DNA of 50,196 nucleotides. It comes from an uncultured bacterium. GTDB taxonomy: Bacteria; Actinomycetota; Actinomycetes; Mycobacteriales; SCTD01. The stretch lies in the NCBI GenBank assembly GCA_964243385.1, contig CAXTFU010000001.1, forward strand, positions 6,312 to 56,507. The letters are read 5' to 3'. Positions 1 through 50,196 of the stretch are shown here, in pieces. The stretch's first letter is position 1; every line of letters begins with the position of its first letter. The notes below the pieces were generated by a model that saw only the letters and a list, made by a program, of their open reading frames with translations, searched no databases and was not told the origin of the DNA. Position numbers and translations under genes: made by a program.

Positions 1-462
1 CTCGGCCCGCGCCTCGGCGACGTCGTGTGGGACGTCGGCGCCGGCAGCGGCTCGGTCGGCGTCGAGTGCGCCCGCTTCGGCGCCGACGTGTGCGCGGTCG
101 AGCGCGACCCCGCCGACGCCGCCCGCGTCGCCGAGAACGCCGCCACGCACGGGGTCGTCGTCCGCGTCGTCGTGGGGGAGGCGCCCGAGGCGCTGGCAGC
201 GCTGCCCGACCCCGACGCCGTGTTCGTCGGCGGCGGCGGCCCGGTGGTCGTCGCGGCGTGCGCCGCCCGCCGTCCGGCCCGCCTGGTCGTCGCGCTGGCC
301 ACCGTCGAGCAGGTCGCGCCGACGCGCGAGGCGCTCGCCGGCTACGACGTCGAGGCGGTGCTGCTGCAGGTCAGCGCGCTCGCCCCGCTCGGGACGGGCT
401 CGCGGCTCGTGCCCGCGAACCCGGTCTTCGTCCTGTCGGGGACGCGAGCGGTGCCGGCGTGA
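1..462 (+). CDS. cobL: Precorrin-6Y C5,15-methyltransferase (decarboxylating), C-terminal CbiT-type domain; 5' end cut by the window edge
   Basis: Frame 1 is open from nt 1. Translation LGPRLGDVVWDVGAGSGSVGVECARFG... carries the SAM-binding DVGAGSGS motif of CbiT/CobL. High GC3. TGA 460-462 overlaps the next GTG (GTGA). Confidence 0.85.
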   Translation, partial: LGPRLGDVVWDVGAGSGSVGVECARFGADVCAVERDPADAARVAENAATHGVVVRVVVGEAPEALAALPDPDAVFVGGGGPVVVAACAARRPARLVVALATVEQVAPTREALAGYDVEAVLLQVSALAPLGTGSRLVPANPVFVLSGTRAVPA

Positions 463-665
463 TCGGCCTGGGTGCGTCCGTCGCAGCAGCTGCCCAGCCG
501 TGCGTCCAGCTCGAGGCCCGGCTGCCACTTCCCCTGCGATCCGGTACGCCTGGAGGCCCCATCGCGTACCAGCACGCAGGGGAAGACGCCGACAGCACGT
601 CCCCAGGTGCGGCGAGCCCGGTCGGCGGGAACCCGTGCCCCTCGACGCTGGCGGTGCCGGCGTGA
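459..665 (+). CDS. Hypothetical 68-aa mini-ORF occupying the junction duplication between cobL and cbiG
   Basis: GTG 459 overlaps the cobL stop (GTGA), and its own TGA 663-665 overlaps the cbiG GTG 662 (GTGA). It starts VIGLG (CbiG starts VIGLV) and ends TLAVPA (CobL ends TRAVPA). 14 of 68 codons end in A/T, a lower GC3 than the neighbouring genes. No recognisable family. Confidence 0.3.
   Translation: MIGLGASVAAAAQPCVQLEARLPLPLRSGTPGGPIAYQHAGEDADSTSPGAASPVGGNPCPSTLAVPA
528..585 (+). other. Nested RNA/DNA stem-loop inside the 179-bp insert
   Basis: 11-bp outer stem cttcccctgcg (528-538) / cgcaggggaag (575-585). 7-bp inner stem ggtacgc (543-549) / gcgtacc (564-570). Confidence 0.5.
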
Positions 666-2314
666 TCGGCCTGGTCACCACGACCGCGGCCGGACGCGCG
701 GCCGCGGCCCGCCTCGCTGCCGCCCTGCCCGAGACGCAGGAGTACGACGTCCGCTCGTTCGAGGACGCGTTCGCCGAGTGCGACGCGCTCGTGTCGTTCC
801 TCGCCGTCGGCGCGACCGTCCGGCTGCTCGCGCCGCTGCTGCGCGGCAAGCGGGTCGACCCCGGGGTCGTCGTCGTCGACGAGGCCTCGCGCTTCGCCGT
901 CGCGCTCGTCGGCGGGCACGGCGGCGGGGCGAACGCGCTCGCCGAGCAGGTGGCCGACGTCCTCGGCGCCACCGCCGTCGTCACCACCGCGACCGACGCG
1001 GTCGGCCTGCCGGGGCTCGACACCCTGGGCTGGCCGGTCGAGGGGGCCGTCGCGGCCGTGAGCCGCGCGATGCTCGACGGCCGGCCCGTGCGGCTCGACG
1101 CCGACGCGACCTGGCCGCTGCCGCCGCTGCCCGTCGGCGCGGACGGCGACCACGTCGTCCGCGTCACCGACCGCGTCGTCGAGCCGGACGGGCGCACGGT
1201 CGTGCTGCGGCCGCCGTCGCTCGTGCTCGGCCTGGGCGCCTCGCGCGGCGTGGGCGCGGACGAGGTGCTCGGGCTGATCGACCGGGCTCTGGCCGGTGCG
1301 GGGCTGTCCGCCGCGTCCGTCGTCGCCGTCGGGACCGCCGACGCCAAGGCCGACGAGGCCGGGCTCGTCGAGGCGTGCGCCCGGCGCGGGTGGCCGCTCA
1401 CGACCTTCCCGTCCGACCGGCTGGCCGAGGTCGACGTGCCGAACCCGAGCGGGCACCCACTCGCGGCGGTCGGCACGCCGAGCGTCGCCGAGGCCGCAGC
1501 GCTGCTGCTCGGCGACGAGCTCGTCGTCGAGAAGGCCAAGAGCGCCGCGGCGACCGTCGCGGTGGCGCGCCGCCGTCCGCGCGGAAGGCTGGCGCTCATC
1601 GGGCTCGGCCCCGGCGCCCGCGACCTGCTGACGCCCCGGGCGGAGGCCGAGCTGCGCCGGGCCGCCGTGTGGGTCGGGCTCGACCAGTACGTCGACCAGG
1701 TGCGCGACCTCGCCCGTCCCGGCACCCGGATGCTCGTCACCGGGCTCGGCGAGGAGGAGGAGCGCGCGCACAGCGCCGTCGCCGAGGCTGCGGCCGGGCA
1801 CGCCGTCGCGCTGCTCGGCTCGGGTGACGCGGGCGTCTACGCCATGGCGAGCCCCGCGCTCGAGGTGGCCGGCGACGACCTCGACGTCGTCGGCGTGCCC
1901 GGTGTGACCGCCGCGCTGGCCGCGAGCAGCCTGCTCGGCGCGCCGCTCGGCCACGACCACGCGAGCATCAGCCTGTCCGACCTGCACACGCCCTGGCCGG
2001 CGATCGAGGCGCGGGTGCGAGCCGTCGCGCAGGGCGACCTCGTCGTCACCTTCTACAACCCGCGCAGCCGCGGGCGCGACTGGCAGCTGCCCCGGGCGGT
2101 CGAGCTGCTGCGCGAGCACCGTCCGGGCTCGACCCCCGTCGGGATCGTCACCGACGCGTCGCGGCCGCGCGAGCACGTCGTCCTCACGACCCTCGCCGAG
2201 CTCGACTGCGCCGCGGTGACGATGCTCGCGTGCGTCGTCGTCGGCTCCTCGCAGAGCACCGTGGTGTCCGCCCGGATGGTCACCCCGCGCGGCTACCGGT
2301 GGTCCGGCGCATGA
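662..2314 (+). CDS. cobJ: Fusion of CbiG (cobalt-precorrin-5A hydrolase) and precorrin-3B C17-methyltransferase (CobJ/CbiH)
   Basis: N-terminal half resembles CbiG (LVLGLGASRGVGADEVLGLIDRAL..., VGTPSVAEAAALL). C-terminal half has the tetrapyrrole methylase motifs LALIGLGPGARDLLTP, GDAGVYAMAS and ISLSDLHTPW. GTG 662 was chosen because it overlaps the preceding stop; the upstream part of ORF 500-2314 is Arg/Pro-rich read-through. Confidence 0.85.
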   Translation: MIGLVTTTAAGRAAAARLAAALPETQEYDVRSFEDAFAECDALVSFLAVGATVRLLAPLLRGKRVDPGVVVVDEASRFAVALVGGHGGGANALAEQVADVLGATAVVTTATDAVGLPGLDTLGWPVEGAVAAVSRAMLDGRPVRLDADATWPLPPLPVGADGDHVVRVTDRVVEPDGRTVVLRPPSLVLGLGASRGVGADEVLGLIDRALAGAGLSAASVVAVGTADAKADEAGLVEACARRGWPLTTFPSDRLAEVDVPNPSGHPLAAVGTPSVAEAAALLLGDELVVEKAKSAAATVAVARRRPRGRLALIGLGPGARDLLTPRAEAELRRAAVWVGLDQYVDQVRDLARPGTRMLVTGLGEEEERAHSAVAEAAAGHAVALLGSGDAGVYAMASPALEVAGDDLDVVGVPGVTAALAASSLLGAPLGHDHASISLSDLHTPWPAIEARVRAVAQGDLVVTFYNPRSRGRDWQLPRAVELLREHRPGSTPVGIVTDASRPREHVVLTTLAELDCAAVTMLACVVVGSSQSTVVSARMVTPRGYRWSGA

Positions 2315-2496
2315 GCAACCGCACGAGGTACGTCGTCACCGCCGACTGCACCGCCTGCGGGGCCTGCCTGCTCACCTGCCCCGAGCACGCGATCGTCGTG
2401 GGCGTCCCGCTGCAGGTGCGCGCCGACCGCTGCACCTCCTGCGGCGAGTGCGTCGAGGTGTGCCCCGCCGACGCCGTCCTCGAGCTGCCCGCGTGA
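2311..2496 (+). CDS. Small 2x[4Fe-4S] ferredoxin embedded in the cob cluster (61 aa)
   Basis: Two CxxCxxCxxxCP motifs (CTACGACLLTCP, CTSCGECVEVCP). ATG 2311 overlaps the cobJ stop (ATGA), and its stop overlaps the cobA GTG (GTGA). Confidence 0.8.
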   Translation: MSNRTRYVVTADCTACGACLLTCPEHAIVVGVPLQVRADRCTSCGECVEVCPADAVLELPA

Positions 2497-3266
2497 GGCC
2501 CGGGACGGTGGCGCTCGTCGGGGCGGGGCCGGGCGACCCGGGCCTGCTGACGCTGCGCGCGGCCGAGCTGCTCGGGGAGGCCGACGTCGTGCTCGTCGAC
2601 CGGCTGGTGCACCCGGACGTGCTGCGGCACTGCCGCGACGACGTCCAGCTCGTCGACGTCGGCAAGACCAGCTGGACGGGGACCGCCCCGCGCCAGGAGG
2701 AGATCAACGCCCAGCTCGTCGAGCACGCGCAGGCGGGGCGCCGCGTCGTGCGGCTCAAGGGCGGCGACCCGTTCGTGTTCGGACGCGGGTCGGAGGAGGC
2801 CGCCGCGCTCGTCGCGCAGGGCATCCGGTTCCAGGTCGTGCCGGGCATCTCGTCCGCGCTGGCCGCGCCCGCGTACGCCGGCATCCCGGTCACCGCCCGC
2901 GGCTCGACGCAGGACGTCTGCATCGTCACCGGCCACCTCGACCCCGAGGACCCGGCCAGCCGGGTGCGGTGGCAGGCGCTCGCCACCGGCCCGGGCACGC
3001 TCGTCGTGCTCATGGGGCACGACCGGCTGCCGCTGCTGACGCGCTCGCTGATCCGCTGGGGGCGCGCGCCGTCGACGCCCGCGGCCTGCATCCAGGACGG
3101 CACCCACGCCGGCCAGCGCGTCGTCGTCAGCACGCTCGAGCACCTCGCCGACGACGTCGCCGCGGCCGGGCTGCGCGCGCCGGTCGCCACGGTGATCGGC
3201 GACGTCGTCCGCCTGCGGGAGACGCTGCAGTGGTTCGACCCCCAGGAAGCCGAGGACGACGCATGA
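2493..3266 (+). CDS. cobA: Uroporphyrinogen-III C-methyltransferase (SUMT)
   Basis: VALVGAGPGDPGLLTLRA, RLKGGDPFVFGRG and VVPGISS motifs. GTG 2493 overlaps the upstream stop. Confidence 0.9.
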   Translation: MRPGTVALVGAGPGDPGLLTLRAAELLGEADVVLVDRLVHPDVLRHCRDDVQLVDVGKTSWTGTAPRQEEINAQLVEHAQAGRRVVRLKGGDPFVFGRGSEEAAALVAQGIRFQVVPGISSALAAPAYAGIPVTARGSTQDVCIVTGHLDPEDPASRVRWQALATGPGTLVVLMGHDRLPLLTRSLIRWGRAPSTPAACIQDGTHAGQRVVVSTLEHLADDVAAAGLRAPVATVIGDVVRLRETLQWFDPQEAEDDA

Positions 3267-3850
3267 CCGCAGCTGCACCGCGCCCCCGGGTGCACGCCAT
3301 CGAGCAGGAGTCGTACGCGATCCTGCGCCGCCGGGTCGACCTGTCGCACCTGCCGCCGCGATCGCGCGCGGTCGTCGAGCGGGTCGTGCACGCCAGCGCC
3401 GACCTGTCCTACGTCGACGACCTCGTGCTGGACGAGGACGCCCTGCGCCGCGGGACGGACGCGCTGCGCGCCGGCGCCCCCGTCGTCGCGGACGTGCAGA
3501 TGGTCGCCGCGGGCATCACCCGCCGCACGGCCGTGTGCCGGCTCGCCGACGCCCGGGCGGACGGCGCGCTGACCCGCAGCGCCGCCGCCGTCCGGCTGGC
3601 GCTGGCCGAGGTCGGTCCCGGCGCCGTCTGGGTCGTCGGCTGCGCGCCGACCGCGCTGTTCGAGCTGCTCGCCCTGGACGCGCAGCCGGCGCTCGTCGTC
3701 GGGCTGCCCGTCGGCTTCGTCGGCGCGGCGGAGTCCAAGCAGGCGCTGCGCGACAGCGGCCTGCCCGCCGTCTCGAACACCAGCGAGAAGGGCGGCTCCG
3801 CCGTCGCCTCCGCCGCCCTGAACGCCCTGCTCTACGAGGAGACCCCGTGA
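3263..3850 (+). CDS. cobH: Precorrin-8X methylmutase (CobH/CbiC)
   Basis: IEQESYAILRRRVDLSHL, VHASADLSYV, VVGCAPTALFELL and GFVGAAESK resemble CobH/CbiC. ATG 3263 overlaps the cobA stop (ATGA). Confidence 0.9.
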   Translation: MTAAAPRPRVHAIEQESYAILRRRVDLSHLPPRSRAVVERVVHASADLSYVDDLVLDEDALRRGTDALRAGAPVVADVQMVAAGITRRTAVCRLADARADGALTRSAAAVRLALAEVGPGAVWVVGCAPTALFELLALDAQPALVVGLPVGFVGAAESKQALRDSGLPAVSNTSEKGGSAVASAALNALLYEETP

Positions 3851-4815
3851 CCCGAGTCGCCGCCCGTCCCGCACTGCTCGTCGTCGGGCACGGCACCAAG
3901 AGCGAGCAGGGGTGCGCGGAGTTCGCCGAGCTCGTCGAGCGGACGCAGCTGCGCGCCCCGTGGGCCGACGTCGCCGGCGGCTTCCTCGAGCTGGCGCCGC
4001 CGCCGATCCAGGACGCCGTGCGCCGCATGGTGGAGGCCGGCCACCGGACGATCGACGTCGTCCCGCTGGTGCTCGTCGCGGCGGGTCACAGCAAGGGCGA
4101 CATCCCGGCGGCGCTCGAGCGCGAGAAGGCGCGCCACCGGGGGCTGTCGTTCCGGTACGGGCGGCCGCTGGGCAGCCACCCCGACCTGCTCGCCGTCGCC
4201 GAGCAGCACCTCGAGCAGGTCGTCCCGCGCGCCGACTGGCCGGACACCGCCGTGGTGCTCGTGGGCCGCGGCGCCACCGACCCCGACGCCAACGCCGAGA
4301 TCGCCAAGACCGCACGGCTGCTCCAGGAGGGCCGCGAGCTCGGCACCGTCGAGACGGCGTTCATCTCGCTGGCGCAGCCGTCCGTCCCGGCCGGGCTGGA
4401 CCGCGCGCTGCGGCTCGGGTTCCGCCGCGTCGTCGTGCTGCCGTGGTTCCTGTTCGCCGGGGTGCTGCCCGACCGGATCGTCGCGCAGTCGCAGGCCTGG
4501 GCGGCCGGGCACCCGGACGTCGAGGTGCACGTCGCGGGCCTGCTCGGCCCGACCGACGCGCTCGCCGGCGTGGTGCTCGAGCGGTGGGCCGAGATCGACG
4601 GCGGCGACCTGCGGATGAACTGCGACACCTGCGCCTACCGCGTCGCACTGCCCGGGTTCGAGGACAAGGTCGGCGCCCCGCAGACCCCGCACGACCACCC
4701 GGACGACCCGACCCACGGCCACGGGCACGGGCATGGGCACGGCCACGGACCTGGGCACGGCCACGGGCACGACCAGCACGGGCACGAGCACGCCCCCGAC
4801 CCGGTCGCCGGCTGA
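3847..4815 (+). CDS. cbiX: Sirohydrochlorin cobaltochelatase, long two-domain CbiX with a His-rich C-terminal tail
   Basis: Duplicated CbiX half-domains (LLVVGHGTKSEQG; VVLVGRGATDPDANAE), a CDTCAYR motif and the tail HDHPDDPTHGHGHGHGHGHGPGHGHGHDQHGHEH (4690-4791). GTG 3847 overlaps the cobH stop. Confidence 0.85.
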   Translation: MTRVAARPALLVVGHGTKSEQGCAEFAELVERTQLRAPWADVAGGFLELAPPPIQDAVRRMVEAGHRTIDVVPLVLVAAGHSKGDIPAALEREKARHRGLSFRYGRPLGSHPDLLAVAEQHLEQVVPRADWPDTAVVLVGRGATDPDANAEIAKTARLLQEGRELGTVETAFISLAQPSVPAGLDRALRLGFRRVVVLPWFLFAGVLPDRIVAQSQAWAAGHPDVEVHVAGLLGPTDALAGVVLERWAEIDGGDLRMNCDTCAYRVALPGFEDKVGAPQTPHDHPDDPTHGHGHGHGHGHGPGHGHGHDQHGHEHAPDPVAG

Positions 4816-4816
4816 G

Positions 4817-5887
4817 GTGCCGCCCGAGCCCGCGACCCCGGACGACGCCCACGACCTGCGCCACCACGGCGACGCCGAGCTCGACCCCGGGCTGCTCGAC
4901 CTGGCCGTCAACGTCCGCGGGACGGCCCCGCCGGCCTGGCTCCGCGGACGCCTGGTGCGCGGGCTCGACCAGCTCGGCGCCTACCCCGAACAGCGGGCCG
5001 GCGTCGCCGCGGTCGTCCGGCGGCACGAGCGGCCCGAGGCCGAGGTGCTGCTGACCGCCGGCGCCGCGGAGGCCTTCGTCCTGCTGGCGCGGGTGCTGCA
5101 GCCGCGGCACGCGGTGGTCGTGCACCCCGGGTTCACCGAGCCGGAGGCCGCCCTGCGCGCGGCCGGCCACCAGGTGCACCGGCTCGTGCTCGAGCCGCCG
5201 TACGTGCTCGACCCGGCGCAGGTGCCGGACGAGGCCGACCTCGTCGTCGTCGGCAACCCCACGAACCCGACCGGGATGGTGCACCACCGGCTCGCCGAGC
5301 TGTGCCGCCCCGGCCGCACGGTGGTGGTCGACGAGGCCTTCGCCGACGCCGTGCCGGGCGAGCCGCAGTCGCTGGCCGGACGCGGCGACCTGCCGGGGCT
5401 GGTCGTCGTCCGCAGCCTCACCAAGACCTGGGCGCTCGCCGGGCTGCGGGTCGGCTACCTGCTCGCGCCGGCCGGGCTCGTCGACCGGCTGCGCGACGCC
5501 CAGCCGCTGTGGCCGGTGTCGACGCTCGCGCTGGTCGCCCTCGACACCTGCCTGGCGCGCGGGCCGGTGGCGAGCGCCCGCCGCGACGCCGTCGCCCTGG
5601 CCGAGCAGCGCCGACAGCTCCAGCAGGCCCTGACGGACGTCGGCGTCGAGGTCAGCCCGGGCTCGCAGGCGCCCTACCTGCTGTGCCGCGTCCCCGGACG
5701 CCCCGACGTCCGCGACGGCCTGCGCGCGCGGGGGATCGCCGTGCGCCGTGGCGACACGTTCCCCGGCCTGACGCCGGAGCACTGGCGCACCGCCGTGCGG
5801 GGGGACGACGAGACCGCGCGCCTGGTGGCCGCGGTCCGCGACGTGCTCACGAGCGAGGACGGTCCAGGAGCCTCGACAGCACGATGA
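4817..5887 (+). CDS. cobC: Class I/II aminotransferase-fold threonine-phosphate decarboxylase (CobC/CobD type)
   Basis: LLTAGAAEAFVLLARV, VVVGNPTNPTGMV and VVVRSLTKTWALAGLRVGY (PLP lysine context). GTG 4817 lies 2 nt after the cbiX stop; the start choice is uncertain. Confidence 0.75.
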   Translation: MPPEPATPDDAHDLRHHGDAELDPGLLDLAVNVRGTAPPAWLRGRLVRGLDQLGAYPEQRAGVAAVVRRHERPEAEVLLTAGAAEAFVLLARVLQPRHAVVVHPGFTEPEAALRAAGHQVHRLVLEPPYVLDPAQVPDEADLVVVGNPTNPTGMVHHRLAELCRPGRTVVVDEAFADAVPGEPQSLAGRGDLPGLVVVRSLTKTWALAGLRVGYLLAPAGLVDRLRDAQPLWPVSTLALVALDTCLARGPVASARRDAVALAEQRRQLQQALTDVGVEVSPGSQAPYLLCRVPGRPDVRDGLRARGIAVRRGDTFPGLTPEHWRTAVRGDDETARLVAAVRDVLTSEDGPGASTAR

Positions 5888-6284
5888 CGCTGCGGGTGTG
5901 GTCGACGTTGCGCTCGTCGCGCACCCGCTCGAGGGCCTGCTCGAGCTGGCCGACGTCGGCCGCCAGCATGTGCACGAGCGCGTCCGCGGACCCCGACACG
6001 GTGCAGGCGCTGACGACCTCGGGCACCCTCTCGAGGCTCCGTCGCAGGTCCTGCGGCGAGACCGTCCCCTTGCAGTGCAGCTCGACGTACGCCTCGGTCG
6101 TCCAGCCGAGCACGGCGGGGTCGACGACCGCGGTGAAGCCGCGGATGGCGCCCGAGGCGAGCAGCCGGTCGACCCGCCGCTTGACCGCCGGGGCCGACAG
6201 GCCCACCTGCGCGCCGATCTCGGCGTAGGTCGACCGCGCGTCGCGCAGCAGGCAGCCCACGACGCCCCGGTCCAGCTCGTCCAC
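5847..6284 (-). CDS. lrp: Lrp/AsnC-family transcriptional regulator (145 aa)
   Basis: VDELDRGVVGCLLRDARSTYAEIGAQVGLSAPAVKRRVDRLLASGAIRGFTAVVDP... contains the HTH plus an RAM/AsnC_trans_reg domain. The GTG is preceded by GGAGGAG. The 3' end overlaps the cobC 3' end by 41 nt (convergent). Confidence 0.85.
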   Translation of the reverse strand: MDELDRGVVGCLLRDARSTYAEIGAQVGLSAPAVKRRVDRLLASGAIRGFTAVVDPAVLGWTTEAYVELHCKGTVSPQDLRRSLERVPEVVSACTVSGSADALVHMLAADVGQLEQALERVRDERNVDHTRSVIVLSRLLDRPRS

Positions 6285-6440
6285 GTCGGTCTCCTCCCGC
6301 GCAACGGATCGCCGCCATCGTGCCAGAGCGCGCAGCGGATCGCCGTCAGCGGCGAAGAGAACGACACCACCGGCTGCCGATCCGGTCCGTAGCGTCGACA
6401 GGACGCGCCGGCGCCCCGGCCCACCTGAGCTGGAGCGTCC

Positions 6441-7295
6441 TTGAGCGTCCTGACCGCCCCCGAGACCGCGTCGCCCGAGCGCGTCGCCACCCGCCGGCAC
6501 TACCTCATGTGCCCGCCCGAGCACTTCGCGGTGAGCTACGCGATCAACCCGTGGATGGACGTCACCGTCCCGGTCGACCGCGACCTCGCGATGCGGCAGT
6601 GGTCGGCCCTGCGCGCCACCTACGAGCGGCTCGGCCACCGCGTCGACGTCATCGAGGCCGCACCCGGCCTGCCGGACATGGTCTTCGCGGCGAACGGCGG
6701 CCTGGTCGTCGGCGGACGGGCGCTCGGTGCGCGCTTCACCCATCCCGAGCGGCAGGACGAGGGCCCGGCCTACCTGCGCTGGTTCGCGGGCGCCGTCGCG
6801 GCGGGCGACCTCGTCGAGGCGGTCGAGCCCCGGGCGACCAACGAGGGGGAGGGCGACTTCCTGGTCGTCGGCGACCTCGTGCTGGCGGGCCACGGGTTCC
6901 GCACCGACCCCGGGGCGCACGGCGAGGTGCAGGAGCTGTTCGGCCGGCCGGTCGTCGGGCTGCACCTCGTCGACCCGCACTACTACCACCTGGACACCGC
7001 GCTGGCGGTGCTCGACGACCGCTCGGTCGCCTACTACCCGGGGGCGTTCAGCCCGGGCAGCCTGGCGGTGCTCCGGCGGCTGTTCCCGGACGCCGTGCTC
7101 GCGAACGCCGAGGACGCCGCCGTGCTCGGCCTCAACGCCGTGTCGGACGGCCGGCACGTCGTCCTGCCCACGGCGGCGCGGCGGCTCGCCGACCAGCTGC
7201 GCGAGCGCGGCTACGAGCCGGTGGGGGTCGACCTGTCCGAGCTGCTGCGGGCCGGTGGCGGCGTCAAGTGCTGCACCCTCGAGCTGCGCTCCTGA
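6441..7295 (+). CDS. ddaH: Amidinotransferase-superfamily enzyme, dimethylarginine dimethylaminohydrolase-like
   Basis: YLMCPPEHFAVSYAINPWM, PDMVFAANGG, HLDTALAVL and the C-terminal GGGVKCCTLEL (catalytic Cys context of the guanidino-modifying superfamily). TTG start. Divergent from the Lrp gene. Confidence 0.8.
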   Translation: MSVLTAPETASPERVATRRHYLMCPPEHFAVSYAINPWMDVTVPVDRDLAMRQWSALRATYERLGHRVDVIEAAPGLPDMVFAANGGLVVGGRALGARFTHPERQDEGPAYLRWFAGAVAAGDLVEAVEPRATNEGEGDFLVVGDLVLAGHGFRTDPGAHGEVQELFGRPVVGLHLVDPHYYHLDTALAVLDDRSVAYYPGAFSPGSLAVLRRLFPDAVLANAEDAAVLGLNAVSDGRHVVLPTAARRLADQLRERGYEPVGVDLSELLRAGGGVKCCTLELRS

Positions 7296-7379
7296 CGGGA
7301 CGGCGTCCGCGCGCCCGGCGGGCAGGCGCTCCGCGTCCTGGACGGGGCCGCCGACCTCCGGCCGGCACGGTCAGGGGCG

Positions 7380-7586
7380 TCAGACCAGGCGGACCTTCTC
7401 GTCGCCGACCGCGACGACGTCGCCCTTCTTGAGCTGCCGGCCGCGCCGCTGCTCCAGGCGCCCGCCCACGGTCACGACGCCCTGCTCGAGCAGCGGGCGG
7501 ACGTCGGAGCCCGCGTCGACCAGCCCGGCGAGCTTGAGCAGCTGGCCGAGCCGGATGCCGTCGTCCCGCACCTCGATGTCCCGCAC
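7380..7586 (-). CDS. Small RNA-binding S4-domain protein (68 aa)
   Basis: VRDIEVRDDGIRLGQLLKLAGLVDAGSDVRPLLEQGVVTVGGRLEQRRGRQLKKGDVVAVGDEKVRLV matches YbcJ-like S4 proteins. The rest of ORF 7380-8294 is antisense to the transporter. Confidence 0.75.
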   Translation of the reverse strand: MRDIEVRDDGIRLGQLLKLAGLVDAGSDVRPLLEQGVVTVGGRLEQRRGRQLKKGDVVAVGDEKVRLV

Positions 7587-7644
7587 GCCGCCATGCTGCC
7601 GGACGCGCGCCCGCGCACGGACACGGGCCCAGCCGACGGGGACG

Positions 7645-7765
7645 GGGCGGTAGGTTCTGCGCGACCCCCTCCGCCGGGGAAGTCCGGTGAGAGCCCGGTG
7701 CAGGTGCGCTACTGACGTCTCCCCGCCCGCGCGGCAGGGGAGCGAGCCAGATCGCCGGCGGGGTC
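7645..7765 (+). promoter_or_regulatory. Cobalamin (B12) riboswitch in the leader of the cobalt transporter gene
   Basis: Core GGGGAAGTCCGGTGAGAGCCCGGTGCAGGTGCGCTACTGACG (7676-7717) fits the conserved GGGAA..CCGGTG.GA..CCGG...GC.ACTG core. GAGCCAGATCGCCGGC (7743-7758) fits the B12-box (AGYCMGgAgaCCkGCc) loosely. It lies about 50 nt upstream of RBS GGGAGAG and ATG 7816. Boundaries are approximate. Confidence 0.65.
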
Positions 7766-7815
7766 CAGGGCCGACTCGCACGCTGACCTCCGCCCACGAG
7801 GGAGAGCCGGACTCC

Positions 7816-8766: not shown

Positions 8767-8905
8767 CGGGTTGCGCGCCCGCCACTCCTGTGTGGCGTCG
8801 GTCGCCTCCTGTGAGTCACGACGTCGGAACGGGCAGGACGAGGGCGTCCGCACCTGCGGGCCCTGACCCGCACGCCGCCGACCGCCGACGAAGAGGTGCT
8901 CCGCT

Positions 8906-9619: not shown

Positions 9620-9663
9620 TCGAGCGGGTCGGCTGCCGGGCCGGCGGCTCGTACTGTGGCGCG

Positions 9664-11911: not shown

Positions 11912-11927
11912 TTGGAGCGGTCACCCT

Positions 11928-40533: not shown

Positions 40534-40577
40534 CGCGCCACAGTACGAGCCGCCGGCCCGGCAGCCGACCCGCTCGA

Positions 40578-41291: not shown

Positions 41292-41430
41292 AGCGGAGCA
41301 CCTCTTCGTCGGCGGTCGGCGGCGTGCGGGTCAGGGCCCGCAGGTGCGGACGCCCTCGTCCTGCCCGTTCCGACGTCGTGACTCACAGGAGGCGACCGAC
41401 GCCACACAGGAGTGGCGGGCGCGCAACCCG

Positions 41431-42381: not shown

Positions 42382-42431
42382 GGAGTCCGGCTCTCCCTCG
42401 TGGGCGGAGGTCAGCGTGCGAGTCGGCCCTG

Positions 42432-42552
42432 GACCCCGCCGGCGATCTGGCTCGCTCCCCTGCCGCGCGGGCGGGGAGACGTCAGTAGCGCACCTGCACC
42501 GGGCTCTCACCGGACTTCCCCGGCGGAGGGGGTCGCGCAGAACCTACCGCCC
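42432..42552 (-). promoter_or_regulatory. Cobalamin riboswitch (mirror copy)
   Basis: Twin of 7645-7765. Confidence 0.65.
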
Positions 42553-42610
42553 CGTCCCCGTCGGCTGGGCCCGTGTCCGTGCGCGGGCGCGCGTCCGGCA
42601 GCATGGCGGC

Positions 42611-42817
42611 GTGCGGGACATCGAGGTGCGGGACGACGGCATCCGGCTCGGCCAGCTGCTCAAGCTCGCCGGGCTGGTCGACGCGGGCTCCGACGTCCGC
42701 CCGCTGCTCGAGCAGGGCGTCGTGACCGTGGGCGGGCGCCTGGAGCAGCGGCGCGGCCGGCAGCTCAAGAAGGGCGACGTCGTCGCGGTCGGCGACGAGA
42801 AGGTCCGCCTGGTCTGA
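42611..42817 (+). CDS. S4-domain RNA-binding protein (mirror copy)
   Basis: Exact twin of 7380-7586 (-). Confidence 0.75.
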   Translation: MRDIEVRDDGIRLGQLLKLAGLVDAGSDVRPLLEQGVVTVGGRLEQRRGRQLKKGDVVAVGDEKVRLV

Positions 42818-42901
42818 CGCCCCTGACCGTGCCGGCCGGAGGTCGGCGGCCCCGTCCAGGACGCGGAGCGCCTGCCCGCCGGGCGCGCGGACGCCGTCCC
42901 G

Positions 42902-43756
42902 TCAGGAGCGCAGCTCGAGGGTGCAGCACTTGACGCCGCCACCGGCCCGCAGCAGCTCGGACAGGTCGACCCCCACCGGCTCGTAGCCGCGCTCGCGCAG
43001 CTGGTCGGCGAGCCGCCGCGCCGCCGTGGGCAGGACGACGTGCCGGCCGTCCGACACGGCGTTGAGGCCGAGCACGGCGGCGTCCTCGGCGTTCGCGAGC
43101 ACGGCGTCCGGGAACAGCCGCCGGAGCACCGCCAGGCTGCCCGGGCTGAACGCCCCCGGGTAGTAGGCGACCGAGCGGTCGTCGAGCACCGCCAGCGCGG
43201 TGTCCAGGTGGTAGTAGTGCGGGTCGACGAGGTGCAGCCCGACGACCGGCCGGCCGAACAGCTCCTGCACCTCGCCGTGCGCCCCGGGGTCGGTGCGGAA
43301 CCCGTGGCCCGCCAGCACGAGGTCGCCGACGACCAGGAAGTCGCCCTCCCCCTCGTTGGTCGCCCGGGGCTCGACCGCCTCGACGAGGTCGCCCGCCGCG
43401 ACGGCGCCCGCGAACCAGCGCAGGTAGGCCGGGCCCTCGTCCTGCCGCTCGGGATGGGTGAAGCGCGCACCGAGCGCCCGTCCGCCGACGACCAGGCCGC
43501 CGTTCGCCGCGAAGACCATGTCCGGCAGGCCGGGTGCGGCCTCGATGACGTCGACGCGGTGGCCGAGCCGCTCGTAGGTGGCGCGCAGGGCCGACCACTG
43601 CCGCATCGCGAGGTCGCGGTCGACCGGGACGGTGACGTCCATCCACGGGTTGATCGCGTAGCTCACCGCGAAGTGCTCGGGCGGGCACATGAGGTAGTGC
43701 CGGCGGGTGGCGACGCGCTCGGGCGACGCGGTCTCGGGGGCGGTCAGGACGCTCAA
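42902..43756 (-). CDS. ddaH: Amidinotransferase / DDAH-like enzyme (mirror copy)
   Basis: Exact twin of 6441-7295 (+). Confidence 0.8.
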   Translation of the reverse strand: MSVLTAPETASPERVATRRHYLMCPPEHFAVSYAINPWMDVTVPVDRDLAMRQWSALRATYERLGHRVDVIEAAPGLPDMVFAANGGLVVGGRALGARFTHPERQDEGPAYLRWFAGAVAAGDLVEAVEPRATNEGEGDFLVVGDLVLAGHGFRTDPGAHGEVQELFGRPVVGLHLVDPHYYHLDTALAVLDDRSVAYYPGAFSPGSLAVLRRLFPDAVLANAEDAAVLGLNAVSDGRHVVLPTAARRLADQLRERGYEPVGVDLSELLRAGGGVKCCTLELRS

Positions 43757-43912
43757 GGACGCTCCAGCTCAGGTGGGCCGGGGCGCCGGCGCGTCCTGTC
43801 GACGCTACGGACCGGATCGGCAGCCGGTGGTGTCGTTCTCTTCGCCGCTGACGGCGATCCGCTGCGCGCTCTGGCACGATGGCGGCGATCCGTTGCGCGG
43901 GAGGAGACCGAC

Positions 43913-44350
43913 GTGGACGAGCTGGACCGGGGCGTCGTGGGCTGCCTGCTGCGCGACGCGCGGTCGACCTACGCCGAGATCGGCGCGCAGGTGGGCCTGT
44001 CGGCCCCGGCGGTCAAGCGGCGGGTCGACCGGCTGCTCGCCTCGGGCGCCATCCGCGGCTTCACCGCGGTCGTCGACCCCGCCGTGCTCGGCTGGACGAC
44101 CGAGGCGTACGTCGAGCTGCACTGCAAGGGGACGGTCTCGCCGCAGGACCTGCGACGGAGCCTCGAGAGGGTGCCCGAGGTCGTCAGCGCCTGCACCGTG
44201 TCGGGGTCCGCGGACGCGCTCGTGCACATGCTGGCGGCCGACGTCGGCCAGCTCGAGCAGGCCCTCGAGCGGGTGCGCGACGAGCGCAACGTCGACCACA
44301 CCCGCAGCGTCATCGTGCTGTCGAGGCTCCTGGACCGTCCTCGCTCGTGA
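43913..44350 (+). CDS. lrp: Lrp/AsnC-family regulator (mirror copy)
   Basis: Exact twin of 5847-6284 (-). Confidence 0.85.
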   Translation: MDELDRGVVGCLLRDARSTYAEIGAQVGLSAPAVKRRVDRLLASGAIRGFTAVVDPAVLGWTTEAYVELHCKGTVSPQDLRRSLERVPEVVSACTVSGSADALVHMLAADVGQLEQALERVRDERNVDHTRSVIVLSRLLDRPRS

Positions 44351-45380
44351 GCACGTCGCGGACCGCGGCCACCAGGCGCGCGGTCTCGTCGTCCCCCCGC
44401 ACGGCGGTGCGCCAGTGCTCCGGCGTCAGGCCGGGGAACGTGTCGCCACGGCGCACGGCGATCCCCCGCGCGCGCAGGCCGTCGCGGACGTCGGGGCGTC
44501 CGGGGACGCGGCACAGCAGGTAGGGCGCCTGCGAGCCCGGGCTGACCTCGACGCCGACGTCCGTCAGGGCCTGCTGGAGCTGTCGGCGCTGCTCGGCCAG
44601 GGCGACGGCGTCGCGGCGGGCGCTCGCCACCGGCCCGCGCGCCAGGCAGGTGTCGAGGGCGACCAGCGCGAGCGTCGACACCGGCCACAGCGGCTGGGCG
44701 TCGCGCAGCCGGTCGACGAGCCCGGCCGGCGCGAGCAGGTAGCCGACCCGCAGCCCGGCGAGCGCCCAGGTCTTGGTGAGGCTGCGGACGACGACCAGCC
44801 CCGGCAGGTCGCCGCGTCCGGCCAGCGACTGCGGCTCGCCCGGCACGGCGTCGGCGAAGGCCTCGTCGACCACCACCGTGCGGCCGGGGCGGCACAGCTC
44901 GGCGAGCCGGTGGTGCACCATCCCGGTCGGGTTCGTGGGGTTGCCGACGACGACGAGGTCGGCCTCGTCCGGCACCTGCGCCGGGTCGAGCACGTACGGC
45001 GGCTCGAGCACGAGCCGGTGCACCTGGTGGCCGGCCGCGCGCAGGGCGGCCTCCGGCTCGGTGAACCCGGGGTGCACGACCACCGCGTGCCGCGGCTGCA
45101 GCACCCGCGCCAGCAGGACGAAGGCCTCCGCGGCGCCGGCGGTCAGCAGCACCTCGGCCTCGGGCCGCTCGTGCCGCCGGACGACCGCGGCGACGCCGGC
45201 CCGCTGTTCGGGGTAGGCGCCGAGCTGGTCGAGCCCGCGCACCAGGCGTCCGCGGAGCCAGGCCGGCGGGGCCGTCCCGCGGACGTTGACGGCCAGGTCG
45301 AGCAGCCCGGGGTCGAGCTCGGCGTCGCCGTGGTGGCGCAGGTCGTGGGCGTCGTCCGGGGTCGCGGGCTCGGGCGGCAC
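44310..45380 (-). CDS. cobC: Threonine-phosphate decarboxylase-type aminotransferase (mirror copy)
   Basis: Exact twin of 4817-5887 (+). Confidence 0.75.
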   Translation of the reverse strand: MPPEPATPDDAHDLRHHGDAELDPGLLDLAVNVRGTAPPAWLRGRLVRGLDQLGAYPEQRAGVAAVVRRHERPEAEVLLTAGAAEAFVLLARVLQPRHAVVVHPGFTEPEAALRAAGHQVHRLVLEPPYVLDPAQVPDEADLVVVGNPTNPTGMVHHRLAELCRPGRTVVVDEAFADAVPGEPQSLAGRGDLPGLVVVRSLTKTWALAGLRVGYLLAPAGLVDRLRDAQPLWPVSTLALVALDTCLARGPVASARRDAVALAEQRRQLQQALTDVGVEVSPGSQAPYLLCRVPGRPDVRDGLRARGIAVRRGDTFPGLTPEHWRTAVRGDDETARLVAAVRDVLTSEDGPGASTAR

Positions 45381-45381
45381 C

Positions 45382-46350
45382 TCAGCCGGCGACCGGGTCG
45401 GGGGCGTGCTCGTGCCCGTGCTGGTCGTGCCCGTGGCCGTGCCCAGGTCCGTGGCCGTGCCCATGCCCGTGCCCGTGGCCGTGGGTCGGGTCGTCCGGGT
45501 GGTCGTGCGGGGTCTGCGGGGCGCCGACCTTGTCCTCGAACCCGGGCAGTGCGACGCGGTAGGCGCAGGTGTCGCAGTTCATCCGCAGGTCGCCGCCGTC
45601 GATCTCGGCCCACCGCTCGAGCACCACGCCGGCGAGCGCGTCGGTCGGGCCGAGCAGGCCCGCGACGTGCACCTCGACGTCCGGGTGCCCGGCCGCCCAG
45701 GCCTGCGACTGCGCGACGATCCGGTCGGGCAGCACCCCGGCGAACAGGAACCACGGCAGCACGACGACGCGGCGGAACCCGAGCCGCAGCGCGCGGTCCA
45801 GCCCGGCCGGGACGGACGGCTGCGCCAGCGAGATGAACGCCGTCTCGACGGTGCCGAGCTCGCGGCCCTCCTGGAGCAGCCGTGCGGTCTTGGCGATCTC
45901 GGCGTTGGCGTCGGGGTCGGTGGCGCCGCGGCCCACGAGCACCACGGCGGTGTCCGGCCAGTCGGCGCGCGGGACGACCTGCTCGAGGTGCTGCTCGGCG
46001 ACGGCGAGCAGGTCGGGGTGGCTGCCCAGCGGCCGCCCGTACCGGAACGACAGCCCCCGGTGGCGCGCCTTCTCGCGCTCGAGCGCCGCCGGGATGTCGC
46101 CCTTGCTGTGACCCGCCGCGACGAGCACCAGCGGGACGACGTCGATCGTCCGGTGGCCGGCCTCCACCATGCGGCGCACGGCGTCCTGGATCGGCGGCGG
46201 CGCCAGCTCGAGGAAGCCGCCGGCGACGTCGGCCCACGGGGCGCGCAGCTGCGTCCGCTCGACGAGCTCGGCGAACTCCGCGCACCCCTGCTCGCTCTTG
46301 GTGCCGTGCCCGACGACGAGCAGTGCGGGACGGGCGGCGACTCGGGTCAC
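45382..46350 (-). CDS. cbiX: Sirohydrochlorin cobaltochelatase with His-rich tail (mirror copy)
   Basis: Exact twin of 3847-4815 (+). Confidence 0.85.
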   Translation of the reverse strand: MTRVAARPALLVVGHGTKSEQGCAEFAELVERTQLRAPWADVAGGFLELAPPPIQDAVRRMVEAGHRTIDVVPLVLVAAGHSKGDIPAALEREKARHRGLSFRYGRPLGSHPDLLAVAEQHLEQVVPRADWPDTAVVLVGRGATDPDANAEIAKTARLLQEGRELGTVETAFISLAQPSVPAGLDRALRLGFRRVVVLPWFLFAGVLPDRIVAQSQAWAAGHPDVEVHVAGLLGPTDALAGVVLERWAEIDGGDLRMNCDTCAYRVALPGFEDKVGAPQTPHDHPDDPTHGHGHGHGHGHGPGHGHGHDQHGHEHAPDPVAG

Positions 46351-46934
46351 GGGGTCTCCTCGTAGAGCAGGGCGTTCAGGGCGGCGGAGGCGACGGCGGA
46401 GCCGCCCTTCTCGCTGGTGTTCGAGACGGCGGGCAGGCCGCTGTCGCGCAGCGCCTGCTTGGACTCCGCCGCGCCGACGAAGCCGACGGGCAGCCCGACG
46501 ACGAGCGCCGGCTGCGCGTCCAGGGCGAGCAGCTCGAACAGCGCGGTCGGCGCGCAGCCGACGACCCAGACGGCGCCGGGACCGACCTCGGCCAGCGCCA
46601 GCCGGACGGCGGCGGCGCTGCGGGTCAGCGCGCCGTCCGCCCGGGCGTCGGCGAGCCGGCACACGGCCGTGCGGCGGGTGATGCCCGCGGCGACCATCTG
46701 CACGTCCGCGACGACGGGGGCGCCGGCGCGCAGCGCGTCCGTCCCGCGGCGCAGGGCGTCCTCGTCCAGCACGAGGTCGTCGACGTAGGACAGGTCGGCG
46801 CTGGCGTGCACGACCCGCTCGACGACCGCGCGCGATCGCGGCGGCAGGTGCGACAGGTCGACCCGGCGGCGCAGGATCGCGTACGACTCCTGCTCGATGG
46901 CGTGCACCCGGGGGCGCGGTGCAGCTGCGGTCAT
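46347..46934 (-). CDS. cobH: Precorrin-8X methylmutase (mirror copy)
   Basis: Exact twin of 3263-3850 (+). Confidence 0.9.
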   Translation of the reverse strand: MTAAAPRPRVHAIEQESYAILRRRVDLSHLPPRSRAVVERVVHASADLSYVDDLVLDEDALRRGTDALRAGAPVVADVQMVAAGITRRTAVCRLADARADGALTRSAAAVRLALAEVGPGAVWVVGCAPTALFELLALDAQPALVVGLPVGFVGAAESKQALRDSGLPAVSNTSEKGGSAVASAALNALLYEETP

Positions 46935-47704
46935 GCGTCGTCCTCGGCTTCCTGGGGGTCGAACCACTGCAGCGTCTCCCGCAGGCGGACGACGTCGCCG
47001 ATCACCGTGGCGACCGGCGCGCGCAGCCCGGCCGCGGCGACGTCGTCGGCGAGGTGCTCGAGCGTGCTGACGACGACGCGCTGGCCGGCGTGGGTGCCGT
47101 CCTGGATGCAGGCCGCGGGCGTCGACGGCGCGCGCCCCCAGCGGATCAGCGAGCGCGTCAGCAGCGGCAGCCGGTCGTGCCCCATGAGCACGACGAGCGT
47201 GCCCGGGCCGGTGGCGAGCGCCTGCCACCGCACCCGGCTGGCCGGGTCCTCGGGGTCGAGGTGGCCGGTGACGATGCAGACGTCCTGCGTCGAGCCGCGG
47301 GCGGTGACCGGGATGCCGGCGTACGCGGGCGCGGCCAGCGCGGACGAGATGCCCGGCACGACCTGGAACCGGATGCCCTGCGCGACGAGCGCGGCGGCCT
47401 CCTCCGACCCGCGTCCGAACACGAACGGGTCGCCGCCCTTGAGCCGCACGACGCGGCGCCCCGCCTGCGCGTGCTCGACGAGCTGGGCGTTGATCTCCTC
47501 CTGGCGCGGGGCGGTCCCCGTCCAGCTGGTCTTGCCGACGTCGACGAGCTGGACGTCGTCGCGGCAGTGCCGCAGCACGTCCGGGTGCACCAGCCGGTCG
47601 ACGAGCACGACGTCGGCCTCCCCGAGCAGCTCGGCCGCGCGCAGCGTCAGCAGGCCCGGGTCGCCCGGCCCCGCCCCGACGAGCGCCACCGTCCCGGGCC
47701 TCAC
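46931..47704 (-). CDS. cobA: Uroporphyrinogen-III C-methyltransferase (mirror copy)
   Basis: Exact twin of 2493-3266 (+). Confidence 0.9.
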   Translation of the reverse strand: MRPGTVALVGAGPGDPGLLTLRAAELLGEADVVLVDRLVHPDVLRHCRDDVQLVDVGKTSWTGTAPRQEEINAQLVEHAQAGRRVVRLKGGDPFVFGRGSEEAAALVAQGIRFQVVPGISSALAAPAYAGIPVTARGSTQDVCIVTGHLDPEDPASRVRWQALATGPGTLVVLMGHDRLPLLTRSLIRWGRAPSTPAACIQDGTHAGQRVVVSTLEHLADDVAAAGLRAPVATVIGDVVRLRETLQWFDPQEAEDDA

Positions 47705-47886
47705 GCGGGCAGCTCGAGGACGGCGTCGGCGGGGCACACCTCGACGCACTCGCCGCAGGAGGTGCAGCGGTCGGCGCGCACCTGCAGCGGGACGCCCACG
47801 ACGATCGCGTGCTCGGGGCAGGTGAGCAGGCAGGCCCCGCAGGCGGTGCAGTCGGCGGTGACGACGTACCTCGTGCGGTTGCTCAT
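47701..47886 (-). CDS. 2x[4Fe-4S] ferredoxin (mirror copy)
   Basis: Exact twin of 2311-2496 (+). Confidence 0.8.
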   Translation of the reverse strand: MSNRTRYVVTADCTACGACLLTCPEHAIVVGVPLQVRADRCTSCGECVEVCPADAVLELPA

Positions 47887-49535
47887 GCGCCGGACCACCG
47901 GTAGCCGCGCGGGGTGACCATCCGGGCGGACACCACGGTGCTCTGCGAGGAGCCGACGACGACGCACGCGAGCATCGTCACCGCGGCGCAGTCGAGCTCG
48001 GCGAGGGTCGTGAGGACGACGTGCTCGCGCGGCCGCGACGCGTCGGTGACGATCCCGACGGGGGTCGAGCCCGGACGGTGCTCGCGCAGCAGCTCGACCG
48101 CCCGGGGCAGCTGCCAGTCGCGCCCGCGGCTGCGCGGGTTGTAGAAGGTGACGACGAGGTCGCCCTGCGCGACGGCTCGCACCCGCGCCTCGATCGCCGG
48201 CCAGGGCGTGTGCAGGTCGGACAGGCTGATGCTCGCGTGGTCGTGGCCGAGCGGCGCGCCGAGCAGGCTGCTCGCGGCCAGCGCGGCGGTCACACCGGGC
48301 ACGCCGACGACGTCGAGGTCGTCGCCGGCCACCTCGAGCGCGGGGCTCGCCATGGCGTAGACGCCCGCGTCACCCGAGCCGAGCAGCGCGACGGCGTGCC
48401 CGGCCGCAGCCTCGGCGACGGCGCTGTGCGCGCGCTCCTCCTCCTCGCCGAGCCCGGTGACGAGCATCCGGGTGCCGGGACGGGCGAGGTCGCGCACCTG
48501 GTCGACGTACTGGTCGAGCCCGACCCACACGGCGGCCCGGCGCAGCTCGGCCTCCGCCCGGGGCGTCAGCAGGTCGCGGGCGCCGGGGCCGAGCCCGATG
48601 AGCGCCAGCCTTCCGCGCGGACGGCGGCGCGCCACCGCGACGGTCGCCGCGGCGCTCTTGGCCTTCTCGACGACGAGCTCGTCGCCGAGCAGCAGCGCTG
48701 CGGCCTCGGCGACGCTCGGCGTGCCGACCGCCGCGAGTGGGTGCCCGCTCGGGTTCGGCACGTCGACCTCGGCCAGCCGGTCGGACGGGAAGGTCGTGAG
48801 CGGCCACCCGCGCCGGGCGCACGCCTCGACGAGCCCGGCCTCGTCGGCCTTGGCGTCGGCGGTCCCGACGGCGACGACGGACGCGGCGGACAGCCCCGCA
48901 CCGGCCAGAGCCCGGTCGATCAGCCCGAGCACCTCGTCCGCGCCCACGCCGCGCGAGGCGCCCAGGCCGAGCACGAGCGACGGCGGCCGCAGCACGACCG
49001 TGCGCCCGTCCGGCTCGACGACGCGGTCGGTGACGCGGACGACGTGGTCGCCGTCCGCGCCGACGGGCAGCGGCGGCAGCGGCCAGGTCGCGTCGGCGTC
49101 GAGCCGCACGGGCCGGCCGTCGAGCATCGCGCGGCTCACGGCCGCGACGGCCCCCTCGACCGGCCAGCCCAGGGTGTCGAGCCCCGGCAGGCCGACCGCG
49201 TCGGTCGCGGTGGTGACGACGGCGGTGGCGCCGAGGACGTCGGCCACCTGCTCGGCGAGCGCGTTCGCCCCGCCGCCGTGCCCGCCGACGAGCGCGACGG
49301 CGAAGCGCGAGGCCTCGTCGACGACGACGACCCCGGGGTCGACCCGCTTGCCGCGCAGCAGCGGCGCGAGCAGCCGGACGGTCGCGCCGACGGCGAGGAA
49401 CGACACGAGCGCGTCGCACTCGGCGAACGCGTCCTCGAACGAGCGGACGTCGTACTCCTGCGTCTCGGGCAGGGCGGCAGCGAGGCGGGCCGCGGCCGCG
49501 CGTCCGGCCGCGGTCGTGGTGACCAGGCCGATCAC
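47883..49535 (-). CDS. cobJ: CbiG / precorrin-3B C17-methyltransferase fusion (mirror copy)
   Basis: Exact twin of 662-2314 (+). Confidence 0.85.
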   Translation of the reverse strand: MIGLVTTTAAGRAAAARLAAALPETQEYDVRSFEDAFAECDALVSFLAVGATVRLLAPLLRGKRVDPGVVVVDEASRFAVALVGGHGGGANALAEQVADVLGATAVVTTATDAVGLPGLDTLGWPVEGAVAAVSRAMLDGRPVRLDADATWPLPPLPVGADGDHVVRVTDRVVEPDGRTVVLRPPSLVLGLGASRGVGADEVLGLIDRALAGAGLSAASVVAVGTADAKADEAGLVEACARRGWPLTTFPSDRLAEVDVPNPSGHPLAAVGTPSVAEAAALLLGDELVVEKAKSAAATVAVARRRPRGRLALIGLGPGARDLLTPRAEAELRRAAVWVGLDQYVDQVRDLARPGTRMLVTGLGEEEERAHSAVAEAAAGHAVALLGSGDAGVYAMASPALEVAGDDLDVVGVPGVTAALAASSLLGAPLGHDHASISLSDLHTPWPAIEARVRAVAQGDLVVTFYNPRSRGRDWQLPRAVELLREHRPGSTPVGIVTDASRPREHVVLTTLAELDCAAVTMLACVVVGSSQSTVVSARMVTPRGYRWSGA

Positions 49536-49749
49536 GCCGGCACCGCCAGCGTCGAGGGGCACGGGTTCCCGCCGACCGGGCTCGCCGCACCTGGGGACGT
49601 GCTGTCGGCGTCTTCCCCTGCGTGCTGGTACGCGATGGGGCCTCCAGGCGTACCGGATCGCAGGGGAAGTGGCAGCCGGGCCTCGAGCTGGACGCACGGC
49701 TGGGCAGCTGCTGCGACGGACGCACCCAGGCCGATCACGCCGGCACCGC
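49523..49749. repeat. 24-bp direct-repeat pair bracketing the 179-bp insert (mirror copy)
   Basis: Twin of 448-674. Confidence 0.95.
49532..49738 (-). CDS. Hypothetical 68-aa junction mini-ORF (mirror copy)
   Basis: Exact twin of 459-665 (+). Confidence 0.3.
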   Translation of the reverse strand: MIGLGASVAAAAQPCVQLEARLPLPLRSGTPGGPIAYQHAGEDADSTSPGAASPVGGNPCPSTLAVPA

Positions 49750-50196
49750 TCGCGTCCCCGACAGGACGAAGACCGGGTTCGCGGGCACGAGCCGCGAGCC
49801 CGTCCCGAGCGGGGCGAGCGCGCTGACCTGCAGCAGCACCGCCTCGACGTCGTAGCCGGCGAGCGCCTCGCGCGTCGGCGCGACCTGCTCGACGGTGGCC
49901 AGCGCGACGACCAGGCGGGCCGGACGGCGGGCGGCGCACGCCGCGACGACCACCGGGCCGCCGCCGCCGACGAACACGGCGTCGGGGTCGGGCAGCGCTG
50001 CCAGCGCCTCGGGCGCCTCCCCCACGACGACGCGGACGACGACCCCGTGCGTGGCGGCGTTCTCGGCGACGCGGGCGGCGTCGGCGGGGTCGCGCTCGAC
50101 CGCGCACACGTCGGCGCCGAAGCGGGCGCACTCGACGCCGACCGAGCCGCTGCCGGCGCCGACGTCCCACACGACGTCGCCGAGGCGCGGGCCGAG
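49735..50196 (-). CDS. cobL: Precorrin-6Y methyltransferase C-terminal part, truncated by the window edge (mirror copy)
   Basis: Exact twin of 1-462 (+). Confidence 0.85.
   Translation of the reverse strand, partial: LGPRLGDVVWDVGAGSGSVGVECARFGADVCAVERDPADAARVAENAATHGVVVRVVVGEAPEALAALPDPDAVFVGGGGPVVVAACAARRPARLVVALATVEQVAPTREALAGYDVEAVLLQVSALAPLGTGSRLVPANPVFVLSGTRAVPA

Follow-up and report, generated by a model that had tools for sequence, protein, structure and literature searches.

A 50.2-kb perfect palindrome in a contig of an uncultured actinobacterium is most likely a technical fold-back

Contigs that consist of a sequence followed by its own reverse complement are a documented product of sequencing and assembly. 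For example, 81 whole-contig palindromes were found in SPAdes assemblies of Mycobacterium bovis and were judged to be assembly errors (PMC9455707), and a small number of exact mirror-image contigs was removed as artefacts from amplified single-cell genomes (bioRxiv 10.1101/2023.06.06.543983). Fold-backs are also described in single reads, where they account for about 0.55 to 0.6% of Oxford Nanopore Technologies (ONT) genomic-DNA reads according to Heinz et al., one illustrated read having nothing between its halves (PMC12870357). Artificial palindromes are likewise frequent after whole-genome amplification (PMC6218980). Here we describe a 50,196-nt stretch of DNA (the window; contig CAXTFU010000001.1, positions 6,312 to 56,507, assembly GCA_964243385.1) from an uncultured actinobacterium, which forms one perfect palindrome with two arms of 25,098 nt. 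The window is very probably a technical fold-back, in which one normal stretch of chromosome has been written once forwards and once as its reverse complement, and the palindrome is most likely not a real feature of the genome.

The symmetry of the window is complete. Comparison with its own reverse complement gave 0 mismatches across 50,196 positions (A = T = 5992, G = C = 19106), which bears out the original prediction of a 50.2-kb spacerless perfect palindrome made from the sequence alone. The centre of symmetry lies between 25098 and 25099, where the sequence reads ...GCGCTCCGGACCCG directly followed by CGGGTCCGGAGCGC..., and is located 56 nt past the stop codon of a gene for a Zn-dependent alcohol dehydrogenase (ADH). 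At their other ends, both arms stop at the same base inside the coding region of cobL/cbiT, and homology to related genomes extends to nt 1. Equal arms, identical end points and zero divergence would all be expected if one sequence was traversed twice. The perfect identity of the arms suggests that a consensus was polished or a graph traversed, and not that the contig is a single raw read. Elsewhere in the arm (positions 1-25000), perfect spacerless palindromes reach 16 nt at most, and for this reason a chance origin of a 50,196-nt palindrome is impossible; a long native palindrome that caused a simple graph collapse was rejected on the same ground. Self-complementary words of at least 8 nt occur once per about 93 nt of arm, so that a spacerless snap-back site is available almost anywhere in it.

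The axis itself can be described in some detail. When single-stranded, the centre forms a perfect hairpin. An asymmetric quasi-palindrome loop is not found at the junction, the centre being perfectly self-complementary, and an even, self-complementary loop (CGCG) could be present. The G+C content is 76% overall and falls to about 70-72% near the axis. The tail of 56 nt that runs from the ADH stop codon to the axis holds a small, native-looking hairpin with a 9-bp stem (25043-25068), whose fold z-score of -1.2 is not significant, and comparison of this tail with all fetched loci of relatives returned chance matches of 12-20 nt only. An untrimmed SMRTbell adapter had been proposed as one origin of the structure. 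This is not supported, as no adapter remnant is present at the axis, and matches to adapter sequences in the remainder of the window were of 9-12 nt and due to chance.

Set beside the SPAdes and single-cell palindromes, the window has the same build: the entire contig is a sequence plus its exact reverse complement, with every gene twinned (PMC9455707; 10.1101/2023.06.06.543983), and its host, like M. bovis, is a high-G+C actinobacterium (PMC9455707). Those cases could, however, be checked against a reference genome, whereas the window has no strain reference, and its 25-kb arm is long. Long-read fold-backs and the chimeras of multiple displacement amplification (MDA) also resemble it in joining template and complement head-to-head, symmetrically at the midpoint and sometimes without intervening sequence (PMC12870357; PMC6218980), and 25 kb is a plausible length for a single molecule. 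Unlike the window, these are read-level events that are normally outvoted, and they need an assembly dead end in order to reach a contig.

A sequence of events that would produce the window can be outlined. The assembly of a low-abundance, 76% G+C, soil-type actinobacterium may have lost the true continuation a few dozen bases past the ADH gene, leaving a fold-back junction as the only extension at that break. Such a junction could come from a chimeric library molecule, in which the 3' end snaps back at a short self-complementary word (e.g., CCCGCGGG) and extends along its own strand. Alternatively, it could be a nanopore read that ran from the template strand straight into its complement and was not split. 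The assembler would then have passed the junction and retraced the sequence as far as the same break inside cobL. Fold-back junctions would usually be outvoted by other reads and persist where the true path is missing, as may happen with low coverage or strain heterogeneity, and the region past the ADH gene fits this description. Both the kind of fold-back molecule and the assembler are what we infer here rather than what has been shown.

The neighbourhood of the axis can be judged from a comparison set of 13 metagenome contigs (L085-L097) drawn from nine assemblies and at least four related lineages, all of them from other species than that of the window. The order RNase II, F420 oxidoreductase and, further on, panB, TetR, MFS, PNPOx, nadE, aldo/keto reductase (AKR), SRPBCC and ADH is shared by all 13, with about 80-89% nucleotide identity to the window over the main blocks and a common gene order from about 6.8 kb to 25,042. 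In every one of them homology to the window ends at the ADH stop codon and different DNA lies beyond. The gene that directly follows is a convergent GAF-GGDEF-EAL gene in three contigs (L092, L095 and L096), an EAL gene at the same position in L091, a cut-off convergent gene in L094 and a convergent 246-aa gene in L093 and L097, while the L085 group has a 277-aa gene and a methyltransferase. In the longer contigs, this variable gene is followed by a glutamine-synthetase gene (glnA), after which L085, L086 and L095 carry a GATase gene; glnE is found further on in L085 and L097, and probably in L086, whose matching gene has no recorded Pfam match. Inverted self-matches of at least 80 nt are absent from all 13 contigs, none of which folds back. 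The original prediction had named sister contigs that leave position 25098 into different sequence as evidence against a biological origin. Such contigs were found in a weaker form, in related species (13 of 13) and not in the same strain.

These comparisons place the axis at the edge of a strain-variable spot. Two of the relatives' contigs (L087 and L089), which belong to separate assemblies, break off 184 nt beyond the ADH stop codon, beside a single-nucleotide polymorphism that distinguishes strains; since both end at the same point, the neighbourhood is a recurrent assembly break. Two contigs of the set have peculiarities of their own. In L097, a 108-kb contig from JGI, many gene calls are fragmented (glnA, glnE, nadE), which suggests uncorrected long-read indels. 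In L091 (ENA ERZ25039504 contig_9529), the TetR-MFS pair is present twice at 57-5893, in direct orientation and flanking a split panB, and this doubling reflects either a true duplication at the locus or a further assembly fault.

Because all relatives run past the ADH gene, the axis is not an ancestral replicon end. It could still mark a true end of DNA in this strain, either a covalently closed hairpin telomere that was read through or a blunt or protein-capped end at which fold-back reads piled up. Read-through of a hairpin end yields a perfectly spacerless palindrome, and a real end offers no competing path, so that a symmetric contig would result. For instance, palindromes of this kind terminate long-read contigs of Borrelia replicons (PMC6945570). 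The window shares with read-through hairpin telomeres (Borrelia, the Agrobacterium linear chromosome, phage N15) the spacerless perfect palindrome at a contig end (PMC6945570), but it has no resolvase and no recognisable telomere motif at the axis, which was inspected by eye only, and the locus is internal in all relatives. Pfam scans of the approximately 21 distinct genes of the window found no telomere resolvase (ResT/TelK/TelN/TelA), and hence none within 25 kb of the axis; they also found no tap/tpg-like gene and no transposase, integrase, phage or plasmid gene. The locus is moreover a core-chromosome one, which continues past the ADH gene to glnA in the longer contigs and to glnE in several. 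Hairpin telomeres are not known in Actinomycetota. The linear replicons of this phylum end in a protein cap, with stacked terminal palindromes spanning about 150 nt, long inverted repeats at the termini and tap/tpg genes. In the window, the distance from a housekeeping-type gene (ADH) to the axis is just 56 nt, and the actinomycete telomere structure is missing. A paper on an actinobacterial plasmid only speculated about hairpin ends (PMC3666418). A Streptomyces-type (invertron) telomere at the axis was likewise rejected, given a tail that is too short, a single weak hairpin and a core-chromosome locus. Taken together, we regard a true DNA end at the axis as very improbable. It is similarly improbable that the axis is physically real, as either the hairpin end of a linear replicon or the centre of a perfect chromosomal palindrome of at least 50 kb that is kept in vivo. 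A hairpin end that is covalently closed would have no precedent in Actinomycetota, and it would be remarkable for an actinobacterium to have a hairpin-ended replicon or to keep a perfect 50-kb palindrome stably.

Whether the same palindrome exists elsewhere can be asked through its proteins. Seven proteins of the window were matched exactly in public databases (nadE, ADH, AKR, SRPBCC, MFS, F420 oxidoreductase and PNPOx), and all seven lie on one public record of 62,818 bp (NCBI, ENA), which also holds the called cobL/cbiT piece and exceeds the window by 12,622 bp. Each of the exact window proteins that were looked up is on a single record and no second contig carries them; therefore, no independent assembly reproduces the palindrome. 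The claim that the record is one 25.1-kb segment plus its reverse complement thus holds for the window but not for the size of the record, which is 62,818 bp and not 50,196 bp. In the record, the cobL/cbiT call (P0264, 145 aa) begins at GTG 25, which is the first start codon in frame after nt 1 of the window. The eight residues that precede this codon (LGPRLGDV) are identical in the close relatives P0265 and P0266 and near-identical in three more. A gene caller would extend an open frame upstream, and the reading frame must therefore be broken at or just before the edge of the window, where it may be cut by an N-gap, a scaffold joint or a junction. From this we infer that the 50,196-nt palindrome is probably a single block without gaps inside a longer scaffold or record; it is less likely to have been cut symmetrically out of a palindrome of 62,818 bp.

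A second way in which the palindrome could be real is that this strain very recently underwent a fold-back inverted duplication (a tandem inversion duplication or a palindromic amplification). A 3' end that was broken or stalled would have snapped back at a short self-complementary word past the ADH gene and copied its own strand, so that a segment of 25 kb or more was doubled, with nadE, panB, the cob genes and the MFS pump in it. The sequence would allow for such an event, as the axis is in an intergenic, G+C-rich, hairpin-capable stretch and 8-nt self-complementary words are common. Zero divergence fits a very young event, and a de Bruijn assembler would collapse both copies into exactly this symmetric contig. 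The in vivo process also has the snap-back at a short inverted repeat in common with the window, with self-templated synthesis giving head-to-head copies. Real tandem inversion duplications, however, usually keep an asymmetric junction loop, have a second junction and remodel rapidly, and none of these traits is seen here. Those known from Salmonella soon shed their symmetric junctions. In bacteria, kilobase-sized perfect palindromes are unstable, owing to cleavage by SbcCD and to replication slippage, and this instability counts against a duplication, as does the absence from the window of a second junction that would return the inverted copy to the chromosome. None of the 13 relatives offers a parallel, the structure is confined to a single record, the two arms share one end point within a gene, and the pattern is that of a documented artefact. 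We therefore consider a real duplication unlikely, and return to a technical fold-back as the preferred reading.

The view that the structure is most likely technical, which the original prediction had already taken, is supported by the perfect symmetry of identical arms, ordinary gene content, a locus that continues in relatives, the documented artefacts and the lack of adapters and of telomere or mobile-element genes. Several points weigh against it. The relatives belong to different species (ADH at most 89% identical) and show the ancestral arrangement, not that of this strain. A genuine spacerless palindrome, or a covalently closed end that was read through, would yield an identical sequence. 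The 56-nt tail has no match that would point to the native downstream neighbour. Finally, the analysis of the junction covered the assembled sequence.

The significance of the palindrome is mostly one of data hygiene, and as biology it most likely has none. The record doubles approximately 21 genes (nadE, panB, the cob genes and the efflux pump among them), which would inflate estimates of duplication, contamination and gene dosage for the bin, and false paralogues could enter pangenome or copy-number analyses through the doubled arm. Care must be taken to halve gene counts from this window, a precaution that had been advised for statements on gene dosage and that we endorse. In practice, the contig should be split at 25098 and only one of the arms kept.

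The content of the arm, read as a single real copy, is listed in Table 1. Genes were called from Pfam scans of open reading frames (ORFs) and from homology to the gene calls of relatives; gene finding by G+C content at codon positions left strand calls ambiguous and was not relied on. The arm opens with the cobL/cbiT piece, cbiG-cobJ, a second corrin methylase, CbiC, CbiX, an aminotransferase and an amidinotransferase-like gene. Its middle part holds a gene of unknown function, an anti-sigma-type kinase, RNase II, the F420-dependent oxidoreductase, a HATPase-GAF-SpoIIE phosphatase and panB, and its last part TetR, MFS, PNPOx-like, nadE, AKR, SRPBCC and ADH genes. The cob genes, panB, nadE, the MFS efflux pump and the ADH gene adjoining the axis had all been named beforehand, and Pfam confirms each of them. 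A tRNA scan and an Rfam scan of the arm returned zero matches.

Table 1. Coordinates of the palindrome, its axis and the genes of the left arm (positions in the window)
Feature	Position	Strand	Basis or remark
Left arm	1..25098	+	cobL/cbiT fragment to ADH plus 56-nt tail; read as single real copy
Right arm	25099..50196	-	exact reverse complement of 1-25098; a feature at x recurs at 50197-x on the opposite strand
Axis region	25085..25112	.	centre CCGGACCCG directly followed by CGGGTCCGG; no spacer, no adapter
56-nt tail, ADH stop to axis	25043..25098	+	no counterpart in relatives
Cobalamin-biosynthesis block	1..5887	+	Pfam, homology
cobL/cbiT C-terminal piece	1-462	+	in cobalamin-biosynthesis block
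cbiG-cobJ fusion	500-2314	+	in cobalamin-biosynthesis block
TP_methylase	2448-3266	+	in cobalamin-biosynthesis block
CbiC	ORF ending at 3850	+	in cobalamin-biosynthesis block
CbiX	ORF ending at 4815	+	in cobalamin-biosynthesis block
Class I/II aminotransferase	4733-5887	+	in cobalamin-biosynthesis block
RNase II (RNB + S1) exoribonuclease	9654..11091	+	Pfam; start inferred from 474-478 aa homologues
F420-dependent NADP oxidoreductase	11219..11911	+	Pfam; exact protein on 62,818-bp record
HATPase-GAF-GAF-SpoIIE phosphatase, 954 aa	11928..14792	+	Pfam
panB (ketopantoate hydroxymethyltransferase)	14817..15650	-	Pfam, relatives' calls; start approximate
TetR regulator	about 15994-16665		Pfam; directly upstream of MFS transporter
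MFS efflux transporter	16662..18314	+	Pfam; exact protein on 62,818-bp record
PNPOx-like protein	18354..18761	+	Pfam; exact protein on 62,818-bp record
Glutamine-dependent NAD+ synthetase (nadE), 601 aa	19513..21318	-	Pfam, homologues, 62,818-bp record
Aldo/keto reductase (AKR)	21721..22587	-	Pfam; exact protein on 62,818-bp record
SRPBCC / polyketide-cyclase-like protein	22825..23820	+	Pfam; exact protein on 62,818-bp record
Zn-dependent alcohol dehydrogenase (ADH), 392 aa; last gene before axis	23864..25042	+	Pfam ADH_N, ADH_zinc_N; 62,818-bp record

The arm, in which all genes are of a housekeeping kind, is ordinary chromosome of an uncultured 76% G+C actinobacterium, whose nearest named relatives are metagenome-assembled genomes (MAGs) of Frankiales and Mycobacteriales. 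Named nadE homologues come from MAGs of Frankiales, Frankiaceae and Mycobacteriales, and ADH homologues at 84-89% identity are present in ENA and JGI metagenome assemblies. An exact 35-nt search gave 0 matches in viral contigs and 4 in metagenome contigs, all of the latter being diverged ADH homologues at about 77-81% identity. As a taxonomic marker, ADH was tried and found poor, since species-representative genomes give at most 74% identity and are scattered over phyla. The pair SRPBCC-ADH co-occurs across many phyla (Actinomycetota, Acidobacteriota, Gemmatimonadota, Cyanobacteriota and others; loci L001-L080) at 65-74% protein identity, which suggests a two-gene cassette that is widely exchanged.

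Within an otherwise conserved gene order, the arm differs from its relatives in one gene and in two additional insertions, both in spacers. The HATPase-GAF-GAF-SpoIIE phosphatase at 11928-14792 is a lineage-specific gene replacement, standing where most relatives (L085-L087, L095 and L097) have an unrelated gene of about 250 aa with a faint Peripla_BP_2 match. The 750-nt spacer between PNPOx and nadE (18762-19512), two genes that nearly abut in the relatives having both, holds a tandem array of a 58-nt unit in 5.1 copies at 95% identity, two consecutive units being identical (18900-19193, mirrored at 31004-31297). Near-identical 18-nt motifs (GCACACGTCCTGATCNCG) flank this array, and the scanned ORFs that overlap it have no Pfam match. 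A further tandem array, of a 71-nt unit in 3 copies at 90% identity (21429-21642, mirrored at 28555-28768), lies in the nadE-AKR spacer, which has about 390 nt here and only about 20-120 nt in relatives. A hairpin resembling a repetitive extragenic palindrome (REP) was considered as the cause of a simple graph collapse and rejected, since in the hairpin repeats at 21.4 kb the loops are of odd length, and these repeats are unrelated to the tail. Further copies of the 71-nt unit were found neither in the arm nor in any fetched locus. Each unit folds imperfectly into a hairpin, with about 26 nt per arm and 11-12 nt in the loop, and resembles a REP or a miniature inverted-repeat transposable element (MITE).

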